From assembly GCA_015062495.1 (NCBI GenBank), contig SUUN01000001.1, forward strand, positions 97,069-161,068: a stretch of 64,000 nucleotides of DNA, given 5' to 3'. Positions 479 through 59,689 of this stretch are shown here, piece by piece. The position numbers were made by a program, and so were the translations under genes. The notes under the pieces were generated by a model, which was given only the letters and a program-made list of their open reading frames with translations, was not told the origin of the DNA and searched no databases. Origin of the DNA: Alphaproteobacteria bacterium. GTDB taxonomy: Bacteria; Pseudomonadota; Alphaproteobacteria; Rs-D84. Numbering within the stretch: the first letter of the stretch is position 1; every line of letters begins with the position of its first letter.

Positions 479-708
479 TGGATTTTTGTCATTTTTTGGT
501 GTAGTATATACTTTGACATGGCGATTGCTGTGTTGGGCGTCGAAACCCGTTTATGCTCAGTGCCTGTGAAGGTAGAAAATATCTCCAACCAATATGGTTG
601 GAGGGCGGTGAATATATTGAATAAGCCCGCTATTTTCTGAGCATTATAGTTTCGAACCTCCAACCACCCGCTTTGTCAGGTGGTTTTTTGTTTAAAAAAG
701 GATAAAAA

Positions 709-2708: not shown

Positions 2709-2975
2709 TTGCAGTATAAAACTTTTATTGGTACAATGACTGTTGTCAGCATGTGTTTTATGCTGGCGGGGTGTGGAAACCCTTTGTTGGCGTCGGAATA
2801 TTTGTTAATGGCGCAGATTGCGCTGTTTTTTATTGCGGCGGAAGTTACTCCTGACTGTTGGTCAGGAGGGTTGCGATATATATAAATAAGCACACAATTC
2901 CAACAATTGTTTCCAACCTCCTGGCCACCTTAGTTTTATGGTGGTTTTTTGAAATTGTACAAAAGGAGGAAGTCG
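2709..2975 (+). promoter_or_regulatory. Leader copy 0: sigma70 promoter (TTGCAG-N17-TACAAT, 2709-2737) plus a structured 5' leader related to the leaders at 10863 and 21274
   Basis: Shares CGGGGTGTG.AAACCC hairpin, mid-leader terminator (GCGCA-gat-TGCGC + T6), CTCCTGAC-loop-GTCAGGAG hairpin, conserved GGTTGCGATATATATAAATAAGCACACAATTC block, CAACCTCCTG anti-pairing segment and a second terminator (CCACC..GGTGG T6) before the RBS. Confidence 0.6.
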
Positions 2976-3430
2976 TGAAACAAAAACTAATATGTTTGAC
3001 AGTTGTGTTGTTGATGGTGTCTGATGCGGCGGCTGGTGTATATGGATGTGTTGCAGCCAGTGAACCGATACCAGCGCAATCAAGCAGATGTTCGGGAATG
3101 GACTGGAACTTGCTGAGCAGCAATTATCCATATTGGCAATATGGTGATGTTGTTGCTGGGTTTGCCAAGTGTGTTGGTGGTAGTAGTGTGACATGTACGT
3201 GTCGACAAATCTGGCCATATTTTAATGCAATGGGGGAATGGACTGCTAATGCCAGCAGTATAAACAGTCAATGTTCTGCGTCAACAACATCACTATCTGA
3301 TTGTTATACAAATTGTGCGCGTGCGTGCTTGGCGTCAATTGCGGATAATTATATTACCTGGGGTTATAATGATACTGGCAATCGATATGAATTACAAAAT
3401 ATATTGTCTTATTCCGTGTTTTATAAATAG
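2976..3430 (+). CDS. Small Cys-rich secreted protein (signal peptide), hypothetical
   Basis: GTG start 6 nt after AAGGAGG; N-terminal signal peptide MKQKLICLTVVLLMVSDAAAG; 12 Cys in the mature region; preceded by leader copy 0. Confidence 0.55.
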
Positions 3431-10772: not shown

Positions 10773-10862
10773 CATCCCCCGTTTGGGGGATTTTTTCAAA
10801 GTGCAAATAGCAAAGCGCAAAGAGCAATTAATATTTAGATAAATAAAAGTTTATCTAAGTAA

Positions 10863-11142
10863 TTGAATTTATAACAACTATGGCGTATAATGAATGTGTC
10901 GTCGGGTGTTCCGATGACGGGGTGTGAGAACCCGTTCCTTTGCGTCTGAGAAATGTTATGGACGCGCCAAAGATGGCGTGTTTTTTGTCAGATGAAAAAT
11001 AAAAAAACTCCTGATACCCCATTGGGTCAGGAGGGTTGCGATATATATAAATAAGCACACAATTCAAAGGATTGTTCTCAACCTCCTGACCGTCAAAAAA
11101 ATGACGGTTTTTGTTTAACAAAAAAATCAGGAGATTGAACAA
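10863..11142 (+). promoter_or_regulatory. Leader copy 1: promoter TTGAAT-N17-TATAAT (10863-10891) plus a ~250-nt structured leader with two terminators and mutually exclusive pairings
   Basis: Hairpin ACGGG-GTGTGAGAA-CCCGT; terminator CGCGCC-aaagat-GGCGTG+T6 (10962-10986); hairpin CTCCTGAT..GTCAGGAG (11009-11033); GGTCAGGAGGGTTG can pair with CAACCTCCTGACC (11079-11091), which overlaps terminator 2 (GACCGTCA..TGACGGTTTTT, 11088-11112); SD CAGGAGAT then ATG. Confidence 0.65.
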
Positions 11143-11670
11143 ATGAGAAATAAACATATTTTTATTTGTGCCCTGTGTGCGACGTTTGTTGCGCCCGTGG
11201 CACATGGGGCAAGTTGTTTTTATGATGTTGATTGCGAAAGTACAAGTCCATCTGGGGGAATTACGATTGGGCTTACTTGTCCCACGATTACGGTTGGACT
11301 GAAAACGTATGTGGGTATCATGAAGCATTCGTTCACGCACACATGCAACTTTGTGTCTGGGTCGTTGTATGGTTCGTGTGGTCAATTAATTAATGCGGAT
11401 GTCCGTTATGCGTGCTGTCCAGGGTATTATGGCGAATGTAGCGATAATACCGATATTACGACGTGCAGTTGTTCACGATGTCCGCAGTTTAGCGATGCGT
11501 CTGGAACGGTTTATGGAACGACGGAGGGACCGGTGGCAGGAAACGCAAGCAGTTATTCTGGCAATGCCCCGTCCAAGACAGATTGTTATGTTCCAGCCGA
11601 CAAGGGATACGAGGATTCAGATGGGACAGGAACATTTGAATTTACGTCAAAATGTTATTATTCCAATTAA
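11143..11670 (+). CDS. Cys-rich secreted protein, paralog A (C-terminal ...TCSCSRCP...CY...GTGTFEFTSKCYYSN module)
   Basis: Signal peptide MRNKHIFICALCATFVAPVAHG; 16 Cys; C-terminal module shared with the 21552 and 29339 proteins. Confidence 0.6.
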   Translation: MRNKHIFICALCATFVAPVAHGASCFYDVDCESTSPSGGITIGLTCPTITVGLKTYVGIMKHSFTHTCNFVSGSLYGSCGQLINADVRYACCPGYYGECSDNTDITTCSCSRCPQFSDASGTVYGTTEGPVAGNASSYSGNAPSKTDCYVPADKGYEDSDGTGTFEFTSKCYYSN

Positions 11671-11697
11671 AAAATCCCCCGAATGGGGGATTTTTTA
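11671..11697 (+). terminator. Rho-independent terminator
   Basis: AAAATCCCCC-gaat-GGGGGATTTTTT. Confidence 0.7.
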
Positions 11698-20887: not shown

Positions 20888-21178
20888 GTGCGACGCAAGG
20901 CGACAATCAAGGCGGTTTATACACTGTGCGAAAAGGCGTTGGGCGGAAAGTTGCCTGTTGAATATACTGAATATGATAAAAGGTTGCGGTATCAGCGTAG
21001 CACCCTGCGTGATTGTTGGCAATCGTATGCGGATTTTACAAAATATCAGTCAGATGTTCGGGATTGGATTGTGGAATTTGAGCAGAAGGGTGGCTTTGAT
21101 AAGATTGTCGCAGATACGTGGCGATGGTGTTTGGGAATAAATAAAAAATTACCCGTAAAAATCCAAAAACAACGTTAA
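20888..21178 (+). CDS. Hypothetical protein (GTG start)
   Basis: 96-aa ORF immediately after prfA, followed by a terminator at 21178-21209. Confidence 0.4.
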   Translation: MRRKATIKAVYTLCEKALGGKLPVEYTEYDKRLRYQRSTLRDCWQSYADFTKYQSDVRDWIVEFEQKGGFDKIVADTWRWCLGINKKLPVKIQKQR

Positions 21179-21273
21179 AAAAATCCCGTGACCGCGGGAT
21201 TTTTTTTGAGATATGAGACATGAAACATGAGATAGGAATACTTCACTAAATAAACTTTTATTTATTTAAGTAT

Positions 21274-21551
21274 TTGAATTTGTGGCAACTATGGCGTATA
21301 ATTGTTGTGTCGTCGGGTGTTCCGGTGATGGGGTGTCGAAACCCGTTCCTTTGCGTCTGAGAAAAGAGTTTGAATGCGCCGATGCTGGGCGTGTTTTATC
21401 AGATGAAAAATAACAAACTCCTGATGCCAATTGGGTCAGGAGGGTTGCGATATATATAAATAAGCACACAATTCAAAGGATTGTTTCGAACCTCCTGACC
21501 GTCAAATGATTGGCGGTTTTTTGTTTAACAAAAAATCAGGAGATAGAACAA
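21274..21551 (+). promoter_or_regulatory. Leader copy 2: promoter TTGAAT-N17-TATAAT (21274-21302) plus a structured leader homologous to 10863-11142
   Basis: Same architecture as copy 1 with compensatory substitutions: ATGGG..CCCGT, GCGCC..GGCGT+T-run, CTCCTGAT..GTCAGGAG, conserved AT-rich block, CGAACCTCCTGACC, second hairpin plus T6, SD CAGGAGAT. Confidence 0.65.
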
Positions 21552-22229
21552 ATGAAAAAAAATTTACTGTTTGTGGTTGGGGCTGTGTGCTCGGTGGTGG
21601 CGTGTCCAGCAATGGGGGCATACAACTGTTATCAGATAGCGCAATCGTCAGAATATTTATGCGACGGTGCTTTGTCACAGTATCAGATAACGGGGGTGAG
21701 GCCAAGTTTGGATATGTTGGGTGGCGGTATGACGATGCCAGGTTGTGCCAGCAGTGATTATTTTGAATGTTGGGCATATACATCTGGCAGTAATACGGTT
21801 TATGTTCCGTGGTATGACTGTGATAGTTGTATGGCTGGATATACCAGAAAGTCTACAACCGCGCAAATGGGCGGATGTGGAAATGCCACATATTATTATT
21901 GCGAAGAAAATTGTACCGGGTGCAGTAATTGTACGTCTGATACGACGTGGTCCACAACGGGTACGGACGGATATGAAAAAAAGGTCACACGCACGTGCAG
22001 TTGTAACACGTGTATGATCAGCACTTCATATCGTTGCGCCGCCGGATATTATGGCAGTTCAACAAACGGTACATCGGGGTGTACGCGGTGTCCGTCGTCG
22101 GGTGGGGTCTATGGCACAAGTGCCGCAGGCAGTACCGCGATAACATCGTGTTATATTCCGTCTGGAACGTCGATGACAGATAGTGTAGGAACGTATGAAT
22201 ATACGTCAAATTGTTATTATAGCGAATAA
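21552..22229 (+). CDS. Cys-rich secreted protein, paralog B (C-terminal ...CSCNTC...RCP...CY...GTYEYTSNCYYSE)
   Basis: Signal peptide MKKNLLFVVGAVCSVVACPAMG; about 24 Cys; C-terminal module shared with 11143 and 29339. Confidence 0.6.
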   Translation: MKKNLLFVVGAVCSVVACPAMGAYNCYQIAQSSEYLCDGALSQYQITGVRPSLDMLGGGMTMPGCASSDYFECWAYTSGSNTVYVPWYDCDSCMAGYTRKSTTAQMGGCGNATYYYCEENCTGCSNCTSDTTWSTTGTDGYEKKVTRTCSCNTCMISTSYRCAAGYYGSSTNGTSGCTRCPSSGGVYGTSAAGSTAITSCYIPSGTSMTDSVGTYEYTSNCYYSE

Positions 22230-22258
22230 AAAATCCCCGTTTCCGGGGATTTTTATTG
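22229..22258. terminator. Bidirectional terminator
   Basis: AAAAATCCCCG-tttc-CGGGGATTTTTAT between convergent genes. Confidence 0.7.
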
Positions 22259-22259
22259 T

Positions 22260-23372
22260 TTAAAATGCGTATTTGATATTCATGCCACCAATCCATCCGT
22301 CGCGGGCGCCGTCGCGGCGACCAAAGTGCGCAGATATGTTAAAGTGGTTTACATATTTTTCCAGCGATATGCCATATTCGCGATAGTTGTCGGTTTCAAG
22401 TGCGTCGGCGACAATATCATTGATGTGTGTGTCGCCACCGTTGTCAAATATCATTACATATTTGGCGTTCAGTGCGCCGAACCATCCGTTTGCGATGTGC
22501 TTAATCGCGCGCAGGGTGGGGGTGACTTCGAACATGCTGAATAATGCGTCGTTCTTTAAAATATCGCCGGATGCAGATGTGTAATCTTCGCCACGAATCC
22601 ATGTGTATCCCAGGTGTATGCCGGGCTGTAATGTAAATGTGCCGTCCAACGCAAAATCGTATGTGATTTCTGTTGCAGCGCCAACCCAGAAATTTGAATG
22701 TTCGTCGGTGCCGAATATTGTGTCGGTGGTGTTATTTAATACGCCACCGTCAACTGTTGCAAACAGTCCCCAATTGCCGAATACGTTGCCGTTATAGATG
22801 CCAAAGTGACCGCCCTGGGAATCGATTTGGATTTCGTTGTTTTGTTGGTCGCCGTCGATGAATCCGGCGTACATTCCCCATTTAGATACGCCACCCGCGA
22901 ATTCAGACAGGCCGCCTGCGATGCCGAACATAAATGTGTTTATATTGGAATCTAAGTGCGCGAAATTGTCAAATACAGCGTCGTCGCCCATATGTTGCCA
23001 GTTCAACCAAATGCTGTTCAGTGCGGCATCGGCATTGTAAATGTCGCCGCCACTGCGACCGGCACTGCCGTCGTCGTTATATTCGCCGTACATCGGTGCG
23101 GTGCCGTACATTGGGGCACGGCCGTATGTGGTGGCAGGATTTTCACCGCGTTGGGCGGAAATTGATTTGGCGCGTTGTTTCTGTGCGCCCATGTTACCGC
23201 GCATAGATCCTGCAAATGAAGAAATTGCAGTTTGTGTAATTGTGTGTTGAATTGATGCGATGTTGTGTGCCGTAATTGCGTTTGCATAGGCGTGTGTGTT
23301 TGTCGCGGCGTGTGCACCAGATGTGCCCAACAATGACAATAAAGAAATTGTAAAAAGGGTTGTGTGTTTCAT
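22260..23372 (-). CDS. Outer-membrane beta-barrel protein (autotransporter-like / OMP; C-terminal ...NIKYAF)
   Basis: Signal peptide MKHTTLFTISLLSLLGTSGAHA; alternating amphipathic strands and a terminal aromatic residue typical of BAM substrates. Confidence 0.5.
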   Translation of the reverse strand: MKHTTLFTISLLSLLGTSGAHAATNTHAYANAITAHNIASIQHTITQTAISSFAGSMRGNMGAQKQRAKSISAQRGENPATTYGRAPMYGTAPMYGEYNDDGSAGRSGGDIYNADAALNSIWLNWQHMGDDAVFDNFAHLDSNINTFMFGIAGGLSEFAGGVSKWGMYAGFIDGDQQNNEIQIDSQGGHFGIYNGNVFGNWGLFATVDGGVLNNTTDTIFGTDEHSNFWVGAATEITYDFALDGTFTLQPGIHLGYTWIRGEDYTSASGDILKNDALFSMFEVTPTLRAIKHIANGWFGALNAKYVMIFDNGGDTHINDIVADALETDNYREYGISLEKYVNHFNISAHFGRRDGARDGWIGGMNIKYAF

Positions 23373-58418: not shown

Positions 58419-58765
58419 TCCTGTTAAAAAATTTGCTTACCCACCATATAGTTATGCAAAATTTGATTTCAAGTGGCAATAGACAGTTTTTCTTAAAATA
58501 AAACATAATGTTGTATTTTTAGGATTTTGTGGTATAATTGGTGTGAACTCAATGGGATTGGGTTCGGGGTTGTAGAAAGCCCTTATCGTGTACGGGCGAC
58601 ATTCAGTGTCGCTCAATTTTGCCCCCGACATGTGGTCGGGGTGTCGTTGGCTATACAACAGGCATTCGCCAAAGGCCAGCGAAATCATCACACGATATGA
58701 TTTTCTAACACCCCGATCGTCAATTTCATTTGACGATTATTTTTTATGCAAGAAAGGGGTAAGAA

Positions 58766-59689
58766 ATGTCAGATGCAGAATTGGATGCGTTAAATGCTGC
58801 TATTGCTGGAATAGCAGAAAGAATGGCTGATGGGACCGTTGGAAAAACAGTAACGAAAGATAAAGAAGGAAATATTATAACCATCATGGAAGAGAGTATG
58901 GGTCGCCGTATTATTACCCAGTATGATAAAGAAGGGCGTATAACAGTTTCGCAAATCTTGAAGGATAATGATGTTGTGAATTTCAAGGACGGATATATTT
59001 CCAGTATTATAAAGTATGAAGAAGATAGTTATAGTTTTGCCTATGGGGCGTTGGGAATGAATGAAATTCAGTATGGTGAAAATGGGCGTATGTTATCGTC
59101 TGTACACAAGGTAAGAATACGAGATAAATCTAGTTTTCGAAACGAGCCTGGTAGTGGCAAGTGGATGACGACGGACAAGACGACATACTATGACAATGGT
59201 CATATTGCGATACATACCACGTATAAACAAAGAACACAGAATACGGGACGTGGTAATGCGGACTCTTGGGACAATAGCATTCATGGTACAGACAGGGACG
59301 AAACAGATGTGGCAGAATCTTTTGTGTCATCAATTGAACAAATGGACGAAAGTGGCAAGTTGTTGCTGTCGGTGCAATTGCATGAATTTGACGAAGTTAA
59401 CTATCACCCCACAGGGCGCGTTGCGTCAATTCTGCGCAAGGATAAAGACAATAATCCAAAAACCATGACGTCGTATGATGATGTAGGACGAATTTTGAAT
59501 CAAATGGTTTATCAAGACGGCAAAGTGATTTCGTCGGTAGACTATGTGGATGGCAAGCCTGTGTCCAATGTCCAGCAAGGTAATGAAGAATATCAAAATA
59601 TTTTTGACCGGGCGGGAGAACGCGTTAAGAAACATGCCAAGGATAAAAAGGCGGTTGTGAGCCCTGCCCCGATTAAAGAACATGAATAA
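58766..59689 (+). CDS. Repeat-containing hypothetical protein (YD/MORN/YwqK-like G-rich beta-hairpin repeats)
   Basis: Recurrent Y..D.EGR / Y.NG...... / YDDVGR motifs; 307 aa. Confidence 0.45.
   Translation: MSDAELDALNAAIAGIAERMADGTVGKTVTKDKEGNIITIMEESMGRRIITQYDKEGRITVSQILKDNDVVNFKDGYISSIIKYEEDSYSFAYGALGMNEIQYGENGRMLSSVHKVRIRDKSSFRNEPGSGKWMTTDKTTYYDNGHIAIHTTYKQRTQNTGRGNADSWDNSIHGTDRDETDVAESFVSSIEQMDESGKLLLSVQLHEFDEVNYHPTGRVASILRKDKDNNPKTMTSYDDVGRILNQMVYQDGKVISSVDYVDGKPVSNVQQGNEEYQNIFDRAGERVKKHAKDKKAVVSPAPIKEHE

Follow-up and report, generated by a model that had tools for sequence, protein, structure and literature searches.

The 64-kb window considered here (64,000 nt of contig SUUN01000001.1, from an alphaproteobacterium of the Rs-D84 lineage) contains, upstream of a gene whose ATG lies at 11143, a stretch that an initial annotation, made from the letters alone, described as a conserved structured leader with covarying stems and as a candidate riboswitch or attenuator. 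The locus raises the question of whether such a leader exists, to what it is related and how it could control the gene behind it. The first part has a plain answer: copy 1 of the leader, situated at 10895-11117 on the forward strand (about 220 bases, 5' of the gene), is a conserved, structured, cis-encoded element, far beyond chance. As to its kinship, sequence comparison places it not in a new class but in a divergent, re-purposed branch of the prophage leaders of the sRNA-Xcc1 type. As to its function, we consider it probable that copy 1 is a default-off two-state transcription attenuator which descends from prophage antirepressor leaders, sRNA-Xcc1 being the 3' half of these.

The closed fold of the leader

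Members of the leader family were obtained in several ways. An exact search with 21 nt of the AT-rich block of the leader, using one genome per species, gave 12 true loci, all of them in gut metagenome-assembled genomes (MAGs) labelled Candidatus Enterousia, Alphaproteobacteria or Rickettsiales, and each followed by a same-strand gene for a signal-peptide protein. The 12 loci and three copies from the window made up the 15 sequences from which a covariance model, R1, was built. A metagenome scan with three arms only (CTCCTGA..TCAGGAGG..CCTCCTGA), in which the block was left out, yielded 107 stretches. R1 finds 100 leaders in 87 sources, five of which lie in the window, and these leaders comprise 93 distinct sequences. 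Judged by these matches, the family has at least 100 members in the Enterousia-like (Rs-D84) gut alphaproteobacteria.

The dominant conserved structure is a long-range helix between 10919-10942 and 11065-11085, which was absent from the initial annotation. When the 15 sequences were aligned with MAFFT and submitted to RNAalifold, the program chose this helix de novo, and not the local hairpins that had been described before. In copy 1 the strand GGGGU-G-UGAGAAC ... CCUUUG, which comes after hairpin P1, pairs with CAAAGG ... GUUCUCAACCUC, which comes before the terminator. Compensatory pairs are found along the helix, both in its outer part (UCGAAAC/GUUUCGA, UGAGAAC/GUUCUCA, UGGAAAC/GUUUCCA and UGAUAGC/GCUAUCA) and further on (CCUUUG/CAAAGG, UUGUUGG/CCAACAA and CAUAAGG/CCUUAUG). 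The whole arrangement, referred to as the closed fold or state 1, consists of P1 and the long-range helix of about 18 bp, which encloses the variable hairpin P3, the A:B hairpin and the block hairpin, followed by an intact terminator (Table 1).

In a structure-blind alignment, 95.4% of the cells pair, versus 36-55% after a shift of the 3' partners by 1-3 columns, and 25 of the 44 closed-fold pairs vary on both sides. In the 93 distinct sequences the closed fold is 98.7% paired and 38 of the 44 pairs vary on both sides, in 710 cells. These two-sided changes, together with the RNAalifold result, bear out the claim of a covarying cis leader. A model-free ranking by mutual information gave the same picture, with the top 16 pairs (16/16) all belonging to the closed fold. 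The closed fold is also the minimum free energy (MFE) structure of copy 1 and of 88 of the 90 full-length members, and the copy 1 RNA folds at -86.7 kcal/mol (z = -6.9 against dinucleotide shuffles). Furthermore, the 3' segment of a leader forms a duplex that is 8.0 kcal/mol better with its own 5' segment than with the 5' segments of other members (p = 6e-12).

The single hairpins are equally well kept. Among the 93 distinct sequences, 99% of the cells of P1 are paired (92% in the structure-blind alignment), the A:B hairpin is 99% paired with 5 of its 6 core pairs varying on both sides, and the terminator is 98.8% paired with 6 of its 7 pairs varying on both sides; the terminator also appears in the MFE fold of 86 of the 90 members. 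Two further candidates, a possible pseudoknot in which GUGU of the P1 loop would pair with ACAC (11057-11060) and a mutual-information signal between alignment columns 32 and 276, comprise only three pair types and are confounded with subfamily structure.

The position of the element is constant as well. In 87 distinct upstream regions a promoter of the sigma-70 type, TTG...TAtAAT, stands at a fixed distance from P1, and a same-strand open reading frame (ORF) with a Shine-Dalgarno (SD) sequence comes after 96 of the 100 leaders, mostly 12-58 nt 3' of the T-run, so that there is no room for another promoter; the terminator itself lies about 25 nt before the gene. Protein identity alone was used to fetch four homologues of the protein behind copy 2, and each of the four genes (4/4) had the leader directly upstream, with 55-175 bits. 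We concluded that the element is a leader and not a free-standing gene.

The close similarity of the copies could also be explained at the DNA level, by a repeat arising from gene duplication, gene conversion or a mobile element, or by a coding remnant. Copies 1-3 align at 81% mean column identity, and a 41-nt stretch, GGTCAGGAGGGTTGCGATATATATAAATAAGCACACAATTC (11025-11065 in copy 1), is 100% identical in the three copies, which lie within 20 kb of one another; 100 shuffles gave 0 matches. In copy 3, moreover, an ORF with a lipoprotein-like start runs, by eye, through the leader. The helices, however, carry hundreds of compensatory base changes, the reading frame of the block differs between copies 1 and 3, and the element holds a fixed place between promoter and gene at about 100 loci in many species. 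We therefore give almost no credence to the explanation by a DNA repeat. A leader peptide or coding remnant was likewise rejected, because the short ORFs of copies 1-3 differ in frame across the conserved block; in the L002-type leader the ATG of the ORF overlaps the -10 box, which also counts against a leader peptide.

The AT-rich block within this stretch had been called invariant. It is so among close relatives, as the 41 identical nucleotides in three copies show, but it varies in the wider family, as seen in the 107 stretches that the scan with the three arms gave. The block forms a hairpin, the stem of which has 3-5 covarying pairs (UGC/GCA, CGCG/CGCG, CGUG/CACG, UUGCU/AGCAA; pair 214-273 of the stem is UA in 48, CG in 38 and GC in 4 sequences), and its AU-rich loop is conserved, GAAUAU(n)AAUA(A), i.e. 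GAAUAU..AAUAA. Two other readings of the block were rejected. A dif/Xer or invertase site bears only a vague resemblance to what is a covarying RNA hairpin, and for a second promoter inside the block no properly spaced hexamer pair was seen by eye and none is listed by the pattern scan.

A second fold and the proposed mechanism

The same leader can adopt another fold. Segment B (GGUCAGGAGG) is complementary to segment C (CCUCCUGACC), and once they are paired neither the A:B hairpin nor the long-range helix, for which CCUC of C is needed, can form. The initial annotation had noticed that CAACCTCCTGACC can pair with GGTCAGGAGGGTTG and that there is an overlap with the 5' arm of a second terminator; this pairing is present, and the overlap amounts to 4 nt, since B:C takes GACC (11088-11091), the first 4 nt of the terminator stem. 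Because the alternative pairing overlaps the 5' arm of the terminator, the description as an attenuator candidate is fair. In this second fold (state 2, or the 'Xcc1 fold') B, at 11025-11038, is paired with C, at 11080-11091, while the local hairpins P2 and P5 form from the 5' and the 3' segment, respectively. P5 and the long-range helix are mutually exclusive. For a truncated copy 1 transcript, which ends before the 3' arm of the terminator, the MFE structure consists of B:C and P5.

Complementarity between the flanks of B and C is kept in four classes, GUCA/UGAC, GGUU/AACC (which includes copy 4 of the window), GGCU/AGCC and GGCA/UGCC, and in copy 5 the whole core is replaced with all three pairings kept. 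Support for P2 and P5 within the Rs-D84 family is modest: the P2 pair 29-44 is GC in 66, AU in 13 and GU in 11 sequences, and P5 is 93% paired, with a change from A-U to U-A in 5 sequences.

The two folds suggest how the leader might work. In state 1 the terminator would be intact and transcription would stop, so that the gene is off by default; in state 2 the terminator would be blocked and RNA polymerase could read into the gene. Any signal that keeps the 5' segment from the 3' segment would free C to displace A from B and thus turn the gene on. The loops of P2 and P5 are complementary to the opposite strands of the helix and would be expected to nucleate the closed fold quickly, so that switching on would need something that holds the 5' segment or blocks closure. 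Such a trigger might be a ligand, a factor that holds P1-P2, or a factor or contact at the hairpin loop GAAUAU..AAUAA. The loop (GAAUAU..AAUAAG) is unpaired in both folds and yet conserved from gammaproteobacterial phages to Rs-D84 alphaproteobacteria; therefore, its partner would be either intramolecular or a universal factor. The terminator-like tip of P3, present in 63 of the 93 distinct leaders, could cause an additional pause or give rise to a short isoform, like that of IsrK (see below).

This arrangement resembles that of classical attenuators and transcriptional riboswitches, with three mutually exclusive pairings: A:B as the anti-antiterminator, B:C as the antiterminator, and C with 11102-11109 as the terminator. 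As in classical riboswitches, the closing helix shares a strand with the expression platform. Unlike classical attenuators, the Rs-D84 leader has no leader peptide, no known protein-binding motif and no known ligand.

Several points weigh against the two-state attenuator. The closed fold lies below the B:C fold in 87 of 90 truncated transcripts, with a median difference of 5.7 kcal/mol, and by these energies state 2 may rarely form and the terminator may be essentially constitutive. Since the closed fold is favoured thermodynamically, the default is most likely to terminate. Covariation for state 2 is limited within the Rs-D84 family, because the pattern used in the metagenome scan fixed the cores of A, B and C, which leaves about 15 informative sequences. 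The alignment of the 100 leaders was fitted to the state 1 model, which is offset by the RNAalifold result and the structure-blind counts, and the E-values of our home-built models are rough. Finally, we infer termination and read-through from the modelled folds, and the trigger is postulated.

Control at the level of translation was also considered, since the initial annotation had proposed that the 5' CTCCTGAT could sequester the SD sequence. The SD sequences vary (GGGGGA, GGAGG, CAGGAG) and no matching changes accompany them. Sequestration by A or C was rejected, as the region 3' of the terminator has no copy-specific pairing to the 3' segment (p = 0.53).

Kinship with prophage leaders and comparison with other RNAs

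No gathering score of any Rfam family was reached in the whole window or in 20 family loci. For sRNA-Xcc1 (RF02221), copy 1 gave no match at E up to 10 and a partly different set of 20 family loci gave none at E up to 1, and copy 4 gave 32.9 bits, below the gathering score of 53. Mapping in X. campestris showed sRNA-Xcc1 as a separate RNA of 88 nt (PMC2996969). The first description called it an integron-encoded small RNA (sRNA) of Xanthomonas campestris, and the literature treats it as trans-acting; the published sites are 5' of symE in integron cassettes and 5' of an ORF6N gene in the APSE phage. Its Rfam structure is that of state 2: an outer helix (B:C), a hairpin with AAUAnA, a second hairpin (P5), and then UUnGAnCCnCC..CCACC.

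Two scans of viral contigs yielded locus L122 and 110 prophage or phage loci; the leader region is mostly unannotated in the records of these contigs (L122-L231). All 17 phage loci tested (17/17) are bona fide sRNA-Xcc1, with 56-78 bits. Of 108 phage loci, 105 have at 120-200 nt upstream a 5' segment, GAGGCGUCGAAACCUC, that is complementary to the 3' part; the pattern used for the search had not included it. The phage leaders also have a terminator-like P3 (CCAAC..GTTGG ATTTTTT), the A:B hairpin and the loop motif GAAUACAA-[CCCGAAAGGG]-GAAUAAG. sRNA-Xcc1 thus proves to be the 3' half of a longer leader RNA of prophages, 180-220 nt in length, with a complementary 5' segment and two competing folds. 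In the phage relatives the B:C outer helix, P2 and P5 all covary, which serves as an independent validation of the second fold.

The relationship holds in both directions. R1, built from Rs-D84 sequences only, matches 24 phage leaders with a best score of 37 bits, a figure inflated by the pattern selection. Conversely, when a model from 46 phage leaders only (R3), taken from a set in which 16 of 16 loci tested are RF02221, was applied to the unselected 64-kb window, its top five matches were the five leaders, with 69.3, 53.2, 52.8, 35.9 and 21.2 bits; copy 1 is the match with 35.9 bits (E = 1.5e-10). Because of this reciprocal homology of the covariance models and the sub-threshold match, the element is a divergent branch of a catalogued RNA. 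The initial annotation had recognised no named class and suggested an Rfam search; no copy indeed reaches any gathering score, but the homology to sRNA-Xcc1 speaks against an unrecognised class.

Among 54 non-redundant proteins encoded after the phage leaders, Pfam domains of the antirepressor type prevail (ORF6N 11, KilA-N 11, Bro-N 9, Rha 8, P22_AR 4, AntA 3, ANT 1). The leader-bearing prophages include Stx2a-converting phages and Shigella phage POCJ13 (NC_025434, 61724-61964). In the phages the P5-loop/3' segment pairs better with its own upstream 5' segment than in cross-pairs, by 3.1 kcal/mol (p = 7e-7), and also better with its own downstream ribosome-binding site (RBS) region, by 4.8 kcal/mol (p = 3e-10). 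For Rs-D84 leaders and their own downstream regions the difference was -0.39 kcal/mol (p = 0.53), with no specific pairing. Since RBS pairing is specific in the phages and upstream pairing alone is so in Rs-D84, the platform appears to have been exchanged for a terminator that overlaps C. Thus, phage sRNA-Xcc1 leaders pair with the RBS region, whereas the expression platform of Rs-D84 leaders is an intrinsic terminator. The window leaders share with sRNA-Xcc1 the outer helix around two hairpins and a CACC-type tail; they differ in that the nested CCC-GAAA-GGG hairpin is missing, and in that they are chromosomal, multicopy and placed before secreted Cys-rich proteins rather than before antirepressors in mobile elements.

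In the c4 RNA, a leader RNA of about 80 nt forms an outer helix and two hairpins before an antirepressor gene, with complementary sites up- and downstream (a1/b1, a2/b2). The phage sRNA-Xcc1 leaders show this arrangement of sites statistically, while Rs-D84 leaders have no downstream target site (p = 0.53), and Rfam C4 gave no match in the copy 1 region at E up to 10. The c4 antisense RNA belongs to the immI operon of P1 and P7 (Citron and Schuster 1990, as cited in PMC8201110), and that of P1 regulates Ant (PMC8201110).

A second precedent is IsrK of Gifsy-1, whose middle hairpin can give way to a helix formed with a stretch some 130 nt further downstream (Hershko-Shalev et al. 2016, PMC4825925), an alternative pairing shown by the compensatory mutations G28A/C162U and G31A/C159U (PMC4825925). 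As in the Rs-D84 leaders, its 5' half consists of a first hairpin, a middle hairpin and a terminator hairpin, it stands before an antirepressor-like gene, and the choice between middle hairpin and distal helix corresponds to that between P2 and the covariation-supported long-range helix. The isrK locus is the top R3 match in the 48.5 kb of Gifsy-1 (13.1 bits, E = 0.0035). At this locus (L233; NC_010392, 34131-34307, reverse strand) we found P1, a middle hairpin complementary to downstream ACGCCAACCC, a terminator hairpin and then a B/C-like pair, B being GGUGGGGCG and C CGUCUCACC-ACCC. With the Rs-D84 model R2 the locus was not detected (5.1 bits). In the other direction, 10899-10986 of copy 1 gave 19.1 bits (E = 0.061) with Rfam isrK (RF01394), below the gathering score of 50. 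IsrK is unlike the Rs-D84 leader in its translational output via orf45 and anrP, driven by a short isoform in trans, and in having no second terminator. Its sequence similarity to the window copies is marginal. We regard IsrK as a precedent, and probably a distant cousin, but not as a member of the family. The order of elements at the isrK locus, which is that of the sRNA-Xcc1 leaders, suggests that each of these two Rfam families covers one half of related leaders.

The precedent allows another reading of copy 1, in which transcription stopping at P3 (10961-10986) releases an RNA of about 90 nt (P1, the 5' segment and P3) that acts in trans on read-through transcripts of the same locus and alters how they fold. 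Such a mechanism has been shown experimentally for IsrK (PMC4825925), whose locus, as said, leads the R3 matches in Gifsy-1; the weak Rfam match covers just this part of copy 1, and the terminator-like P3 tip recurs in phage relatives as well as in 63 of the 93 leaders. We nevertheless hold a dual isoform to be very unlikely here. The terminator-like tip is missing from 30 of the 93 leaders and P3 is short in 16, including L002, L004, L007 and L013; a 5' segment acting in trans would pair with the same 3' segment and leave A:B and the terminator intact, so that antitermination is not obvious; and the Rs-D84 model failed to detect the isrK locus. The tip had been taken for a first intrinsic terminator by the initial annotation; its GC-rich hairpin and T6 exist, but as the tip of a variable hairpin that is terminator-like in only part of the family.

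The catalogued form of sRNA-Xcc1 invites a further reading, namely that the window leaders are stable trans-acting sRNAs (of about 220 nt, or a processed fragment from B to C) with a constitutive terminator, the gene being reached only by leak-through. The discrete 88-nt sRNA-Xcc1 (PMC2996969), a like description of the P1 c4 RNA, and the prediction of state 1 with the terminator as the ground state of nearly all members are in line with it, as are the Brt RNAs of Bartonella, abundant leader-derived RNAs of similar size (PMC5387305). These are multicopy alphaproteobacterial leaders, some 200 nt long, whose terminator immediately precedes the gene, the genes being XRE regulators, and have been proposed both as a riboswitch-like cis element and as an sRNA (PMC5387305). 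Homology to Brt was rejected because its conserved probe sequence has no counterpart in the leader family; Brt is an analogue and not a relative. Against a trans-acting sRNA, the gene begins about 25 nt after the terminator with no room for a promoter and would then not be expressed; the variable helices differ from copy to copy, each 3' strand pairing with the 5' segment of its own leader and with no downstream target; and the B:C complementarity, including the overlap with the terminator, is kept in four classes, for which a constitutive terminator would have no need. An sRNA of this kind is, in our judgement, quite unlikely.

Copies, downstream genes and surroundings

The window contains five copies of the leader, which are listed in Table 1 with the parts of copy 1. 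The initial annotation had reported a recurrence at 21274-21551 and, in part, at 2709-2975; both copies were found, and two more (512-693 and the divergent 58542-58746) had been missed. All the elements it had listed for 10863-11142 are present where Table 1 places them, including the ACGGG..CCCGT stem-loop (P2), the conserved hairpin CTCCTGAT/GTCAGGAG, the second terminator with its T-run, and the SD sequence and ATG after the leader. The promoter, called perfect, is there as well, but with 10 of 12 consensus matches it is good rather than perfect.

Table 1. Parts of copy 1 of the leader and positions of the other copies in the 64-kb window
Feature	Position	Strand	Description
Promoter, copy 1	10863-10891	+	-35 TTGAAT, 17-nt spacer, -10 TATAAT; pattern scan
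P1 hairpin, GTCGTCGG / CCGATGAC	10898-10918	+	8/8 pairs vary on both sides
5' segment	10919-10942	+	5' strand of the long-range helix: GGGGU-G-UGAGAAC, internal loop CCGUU, CCUUUG
P2, local hairpin ACGGG/CCCGT	10917-10935	+	Alternative fold of the 5' segment
P3, variable hairpin CGTCTGA...TCAGATG	10943-10994	+	MFE fold
P3 tip, terminator-like, GACGCGCC..GGCGTGTT + T-run	10961-10986	+	GC-rich hairpin + T6
A:B hairpin	11008-11033	+	A = CTCCTGAT 11008-11015; B = GTCAGGAG 11026-11033, extends to 11025-11038
Block hairpin	11037-11057	+	Stem TGC/GCA, loop GATATATATAAATAA; stem covaries
P5, local hairpin ACAATTC / GGATTGT	11059-11075	+	Loop and 3' arm = 3' strand of long-range helix III
3' segment	11065-11085	+	3' strand of the long-range helix: CAAAGG, ATT, GTTCTCAACCTC
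Segment C, AACCTCCTGACC	11080-11091	+	Pairs with B, or split: CCTC to the 5' segment, GACC to the terminator arm
Intrinsic terminator, GACCGTCA..TGACGGTT + T-run	11088-11113 (stem 11088-11109)	+	Pattern scan
SD CAGGAG 11128-11133, gene ATG 11143	11128-11670	+	175 aa, signal peptide, Cys-rich
Copy 2	21306-21526	+	Gene 21552-22229; R1 213 bits, R3 52.8 bits
Copy 3	2742-2954	+	Gene 2975-3430; R1 184.5 bits, R3 53.2 bits
Copy 4	512-693	+	Small ORF 709-924; R1 82.8 bits, R3 69.3 bits
Copy 5, divergent, own terminator	58542-58746	+	Gene 58766-59689; R1 33.8 bits, E = 3e-6; R3 21.2 bits, E = 1e-5

With 32.9 bits for Rfam sRNA-Xcc1 and 69.3 bits for the phage-leader model, copy 4, whose variant arms are A CTCCAACC, B GGTTGGAGG and C CCTCCAACC, comes closest to both among the window copies. 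In the divergent copy 5 the arms are A CCCCGAC, B GGTCGGGGTGT (GGUCGGGGUGU) and C ACACCCCGATC (ACACCCCGAUC), with a core of CCCC/GGGG instead of CUCC/GGAGG, and the MFE fold again has the long-range helix and the terminator (z = -7.35).

The proteins encoded downstream belong to about 67 unrelated families; nearly all have a signal peptide, and the median Cys content is 8%. The annotated position before genes for Cys-rich secreted proteins is therefore typical, in that the leaders of the family nearly always precede a signal-peptide protein, often a Cys-rich one. Among 67 non-redundant downstream proteins, almost all without a Pfam domain, no single metabolic or transport theme was found; the domains detected were Ephrin_rec_like (3), Flg_new (2), HTH_3 (1), HTH_31 (1) and MORN_2 (1). 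The 175-aa protein of copy 1 itself has no Pfam domain. Genes of this kind are better explained by a general regulatory device than by a metabolite riboswitch.

In a riboswitch for a metabolite or ion, the four-way junction closed by the long-range helix would be the aptamer, and its ligand would decide between terminator and antiterminator. The leader does have a closing helix whose 3' strand is common to the expression platform, and conserved unpaired nucleotides (GAAUAU..AAUAA, CACAAUU and the CCGUU/AUU internal loop); it falls into none of the known riboswitch classes. None of the roughly 67 unrelated signal-peptide proteins, however, is a transporter or an enzyme of a common pathway, the conserved loop consists of A and U at a hairpin tip and not at the junction, and the homologous phage leaders control antirepressor genes by antisense-type RBS pairing, where a metabolite is not expected. 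In view of the gene set and the phage ancestry, the label of metabolite riboswitch is unproven and is not the most likely reading; we regard it as unlikely. Of the original double label, the attenuator part stands, with a terminator before the gene and B:C overlapping its 5' arm, while the ligand-sensing part does not fit the unrelated secreted proteins downstream.

The two-state attenuator would have consequences beyond a single gene. As some 100 leaders in genomes below 1 Mb share their conserved parts, one signal would co-regulate many secreted or surface proteins. The Enterousia-like bacteria of Rs-D84 have tiny genomes with few obvious regulators (PMC12306168). It is conceivable, if still speculative, that gut alphaproteobacteria with genomes of less than 1 Mb domesticated a phage antirepressor switch RNA, multiplied it to dozens of copies per genome, replaced its translational platform by a terminator and made it a master on/off switch for the secreted and surface proteome, under one signal (ligand, host factor or RNA) at P1-P2 or at the GAAUAU..AAUAA loop. 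If so, one ancient two-state leader would have its halves catalogued separately, as sRNA-Xcc1 and, at a greater distance, as isrK. The catalogued and poorly understood sRNA-Xcc1 is re-read here as part of a leader before antirepressor genes in more than 100 prophages, Stx2a-converting phages among them. In Rs-D84 a cellular lineage has re-used the same RNA with a different output, the terminator, and a very different gene set. One RNA device before many secreted Cys-rich proteins points to a regulon for interaction with a host or partner, which could be defined by leader search alone, and the two-state mechanism yields testable mutations, for which the experimentally characterised IsrK may serve as a guide.

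Some features of the downstream genes deserve mention. The Cys-rich proteins at 11143-11670 and 21552-22229 and those of loci L001, L006 and L011 share a C-terminal module, ..C.RCP..GGVYGTS.AGST.IT.CY.P.GT...D..GT..Y.S.CYYS/T, which has no Pfam domain, and the 257 homologues of the Cys-rich protein are all annotated as 'hypothetical protein' and come from Alphaproteobacteria or Rickettsiales MAGs. At two loci at least (L013, 7495-7872, and L050, 3363-3587) the leader precedes small proteins that by eye are like XRE-type helix-turn-helix proteins and not secreted ones. The single HTH_3 and HTH_31 matches were obtained for the set as a whole; the arrangement recalls Brt/Trp of Bartonella. The protein behind copy 5 (307 aa) has no signal peptide, and may be the source of the single weak MORN_2 match. 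Copy 4 comes after a tRNA gene (362-435) and before a 72-aa hydrophobic, Cys-containing ORF.

Directly 5' of the -35 box lies a conserved AT-rich element, AAACTTTTATTTAT..TAAGT (10835-10862 and 21250-21273 in the window, and in L002, L003 and L006), which could serve as an UP element or as the site of a factor; it is kept in the closest relatives only and not across the whole leader family. The window copies sit among housekeeping genes (rlmE, uvrA, prfA and tRNA genes). An autotransporter beta-domain gene (22260-23372, reverse strand) is convergent to the Cys-rich gene of copy 2, and very similar bidirectional terminators, AAAAAATCCCC(N3-6)GGGGATTTTTT, stand at gene ends (10774-10791, 11675-11690, 21177-21206 and 22229-22254). 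GC skew is positive in every 2-kb bin of the window (0.02-0.37) and most long ORFs are on the forward strand; the whole window seems to lie on the leading strand of one replichore, with an unusually strong skew.

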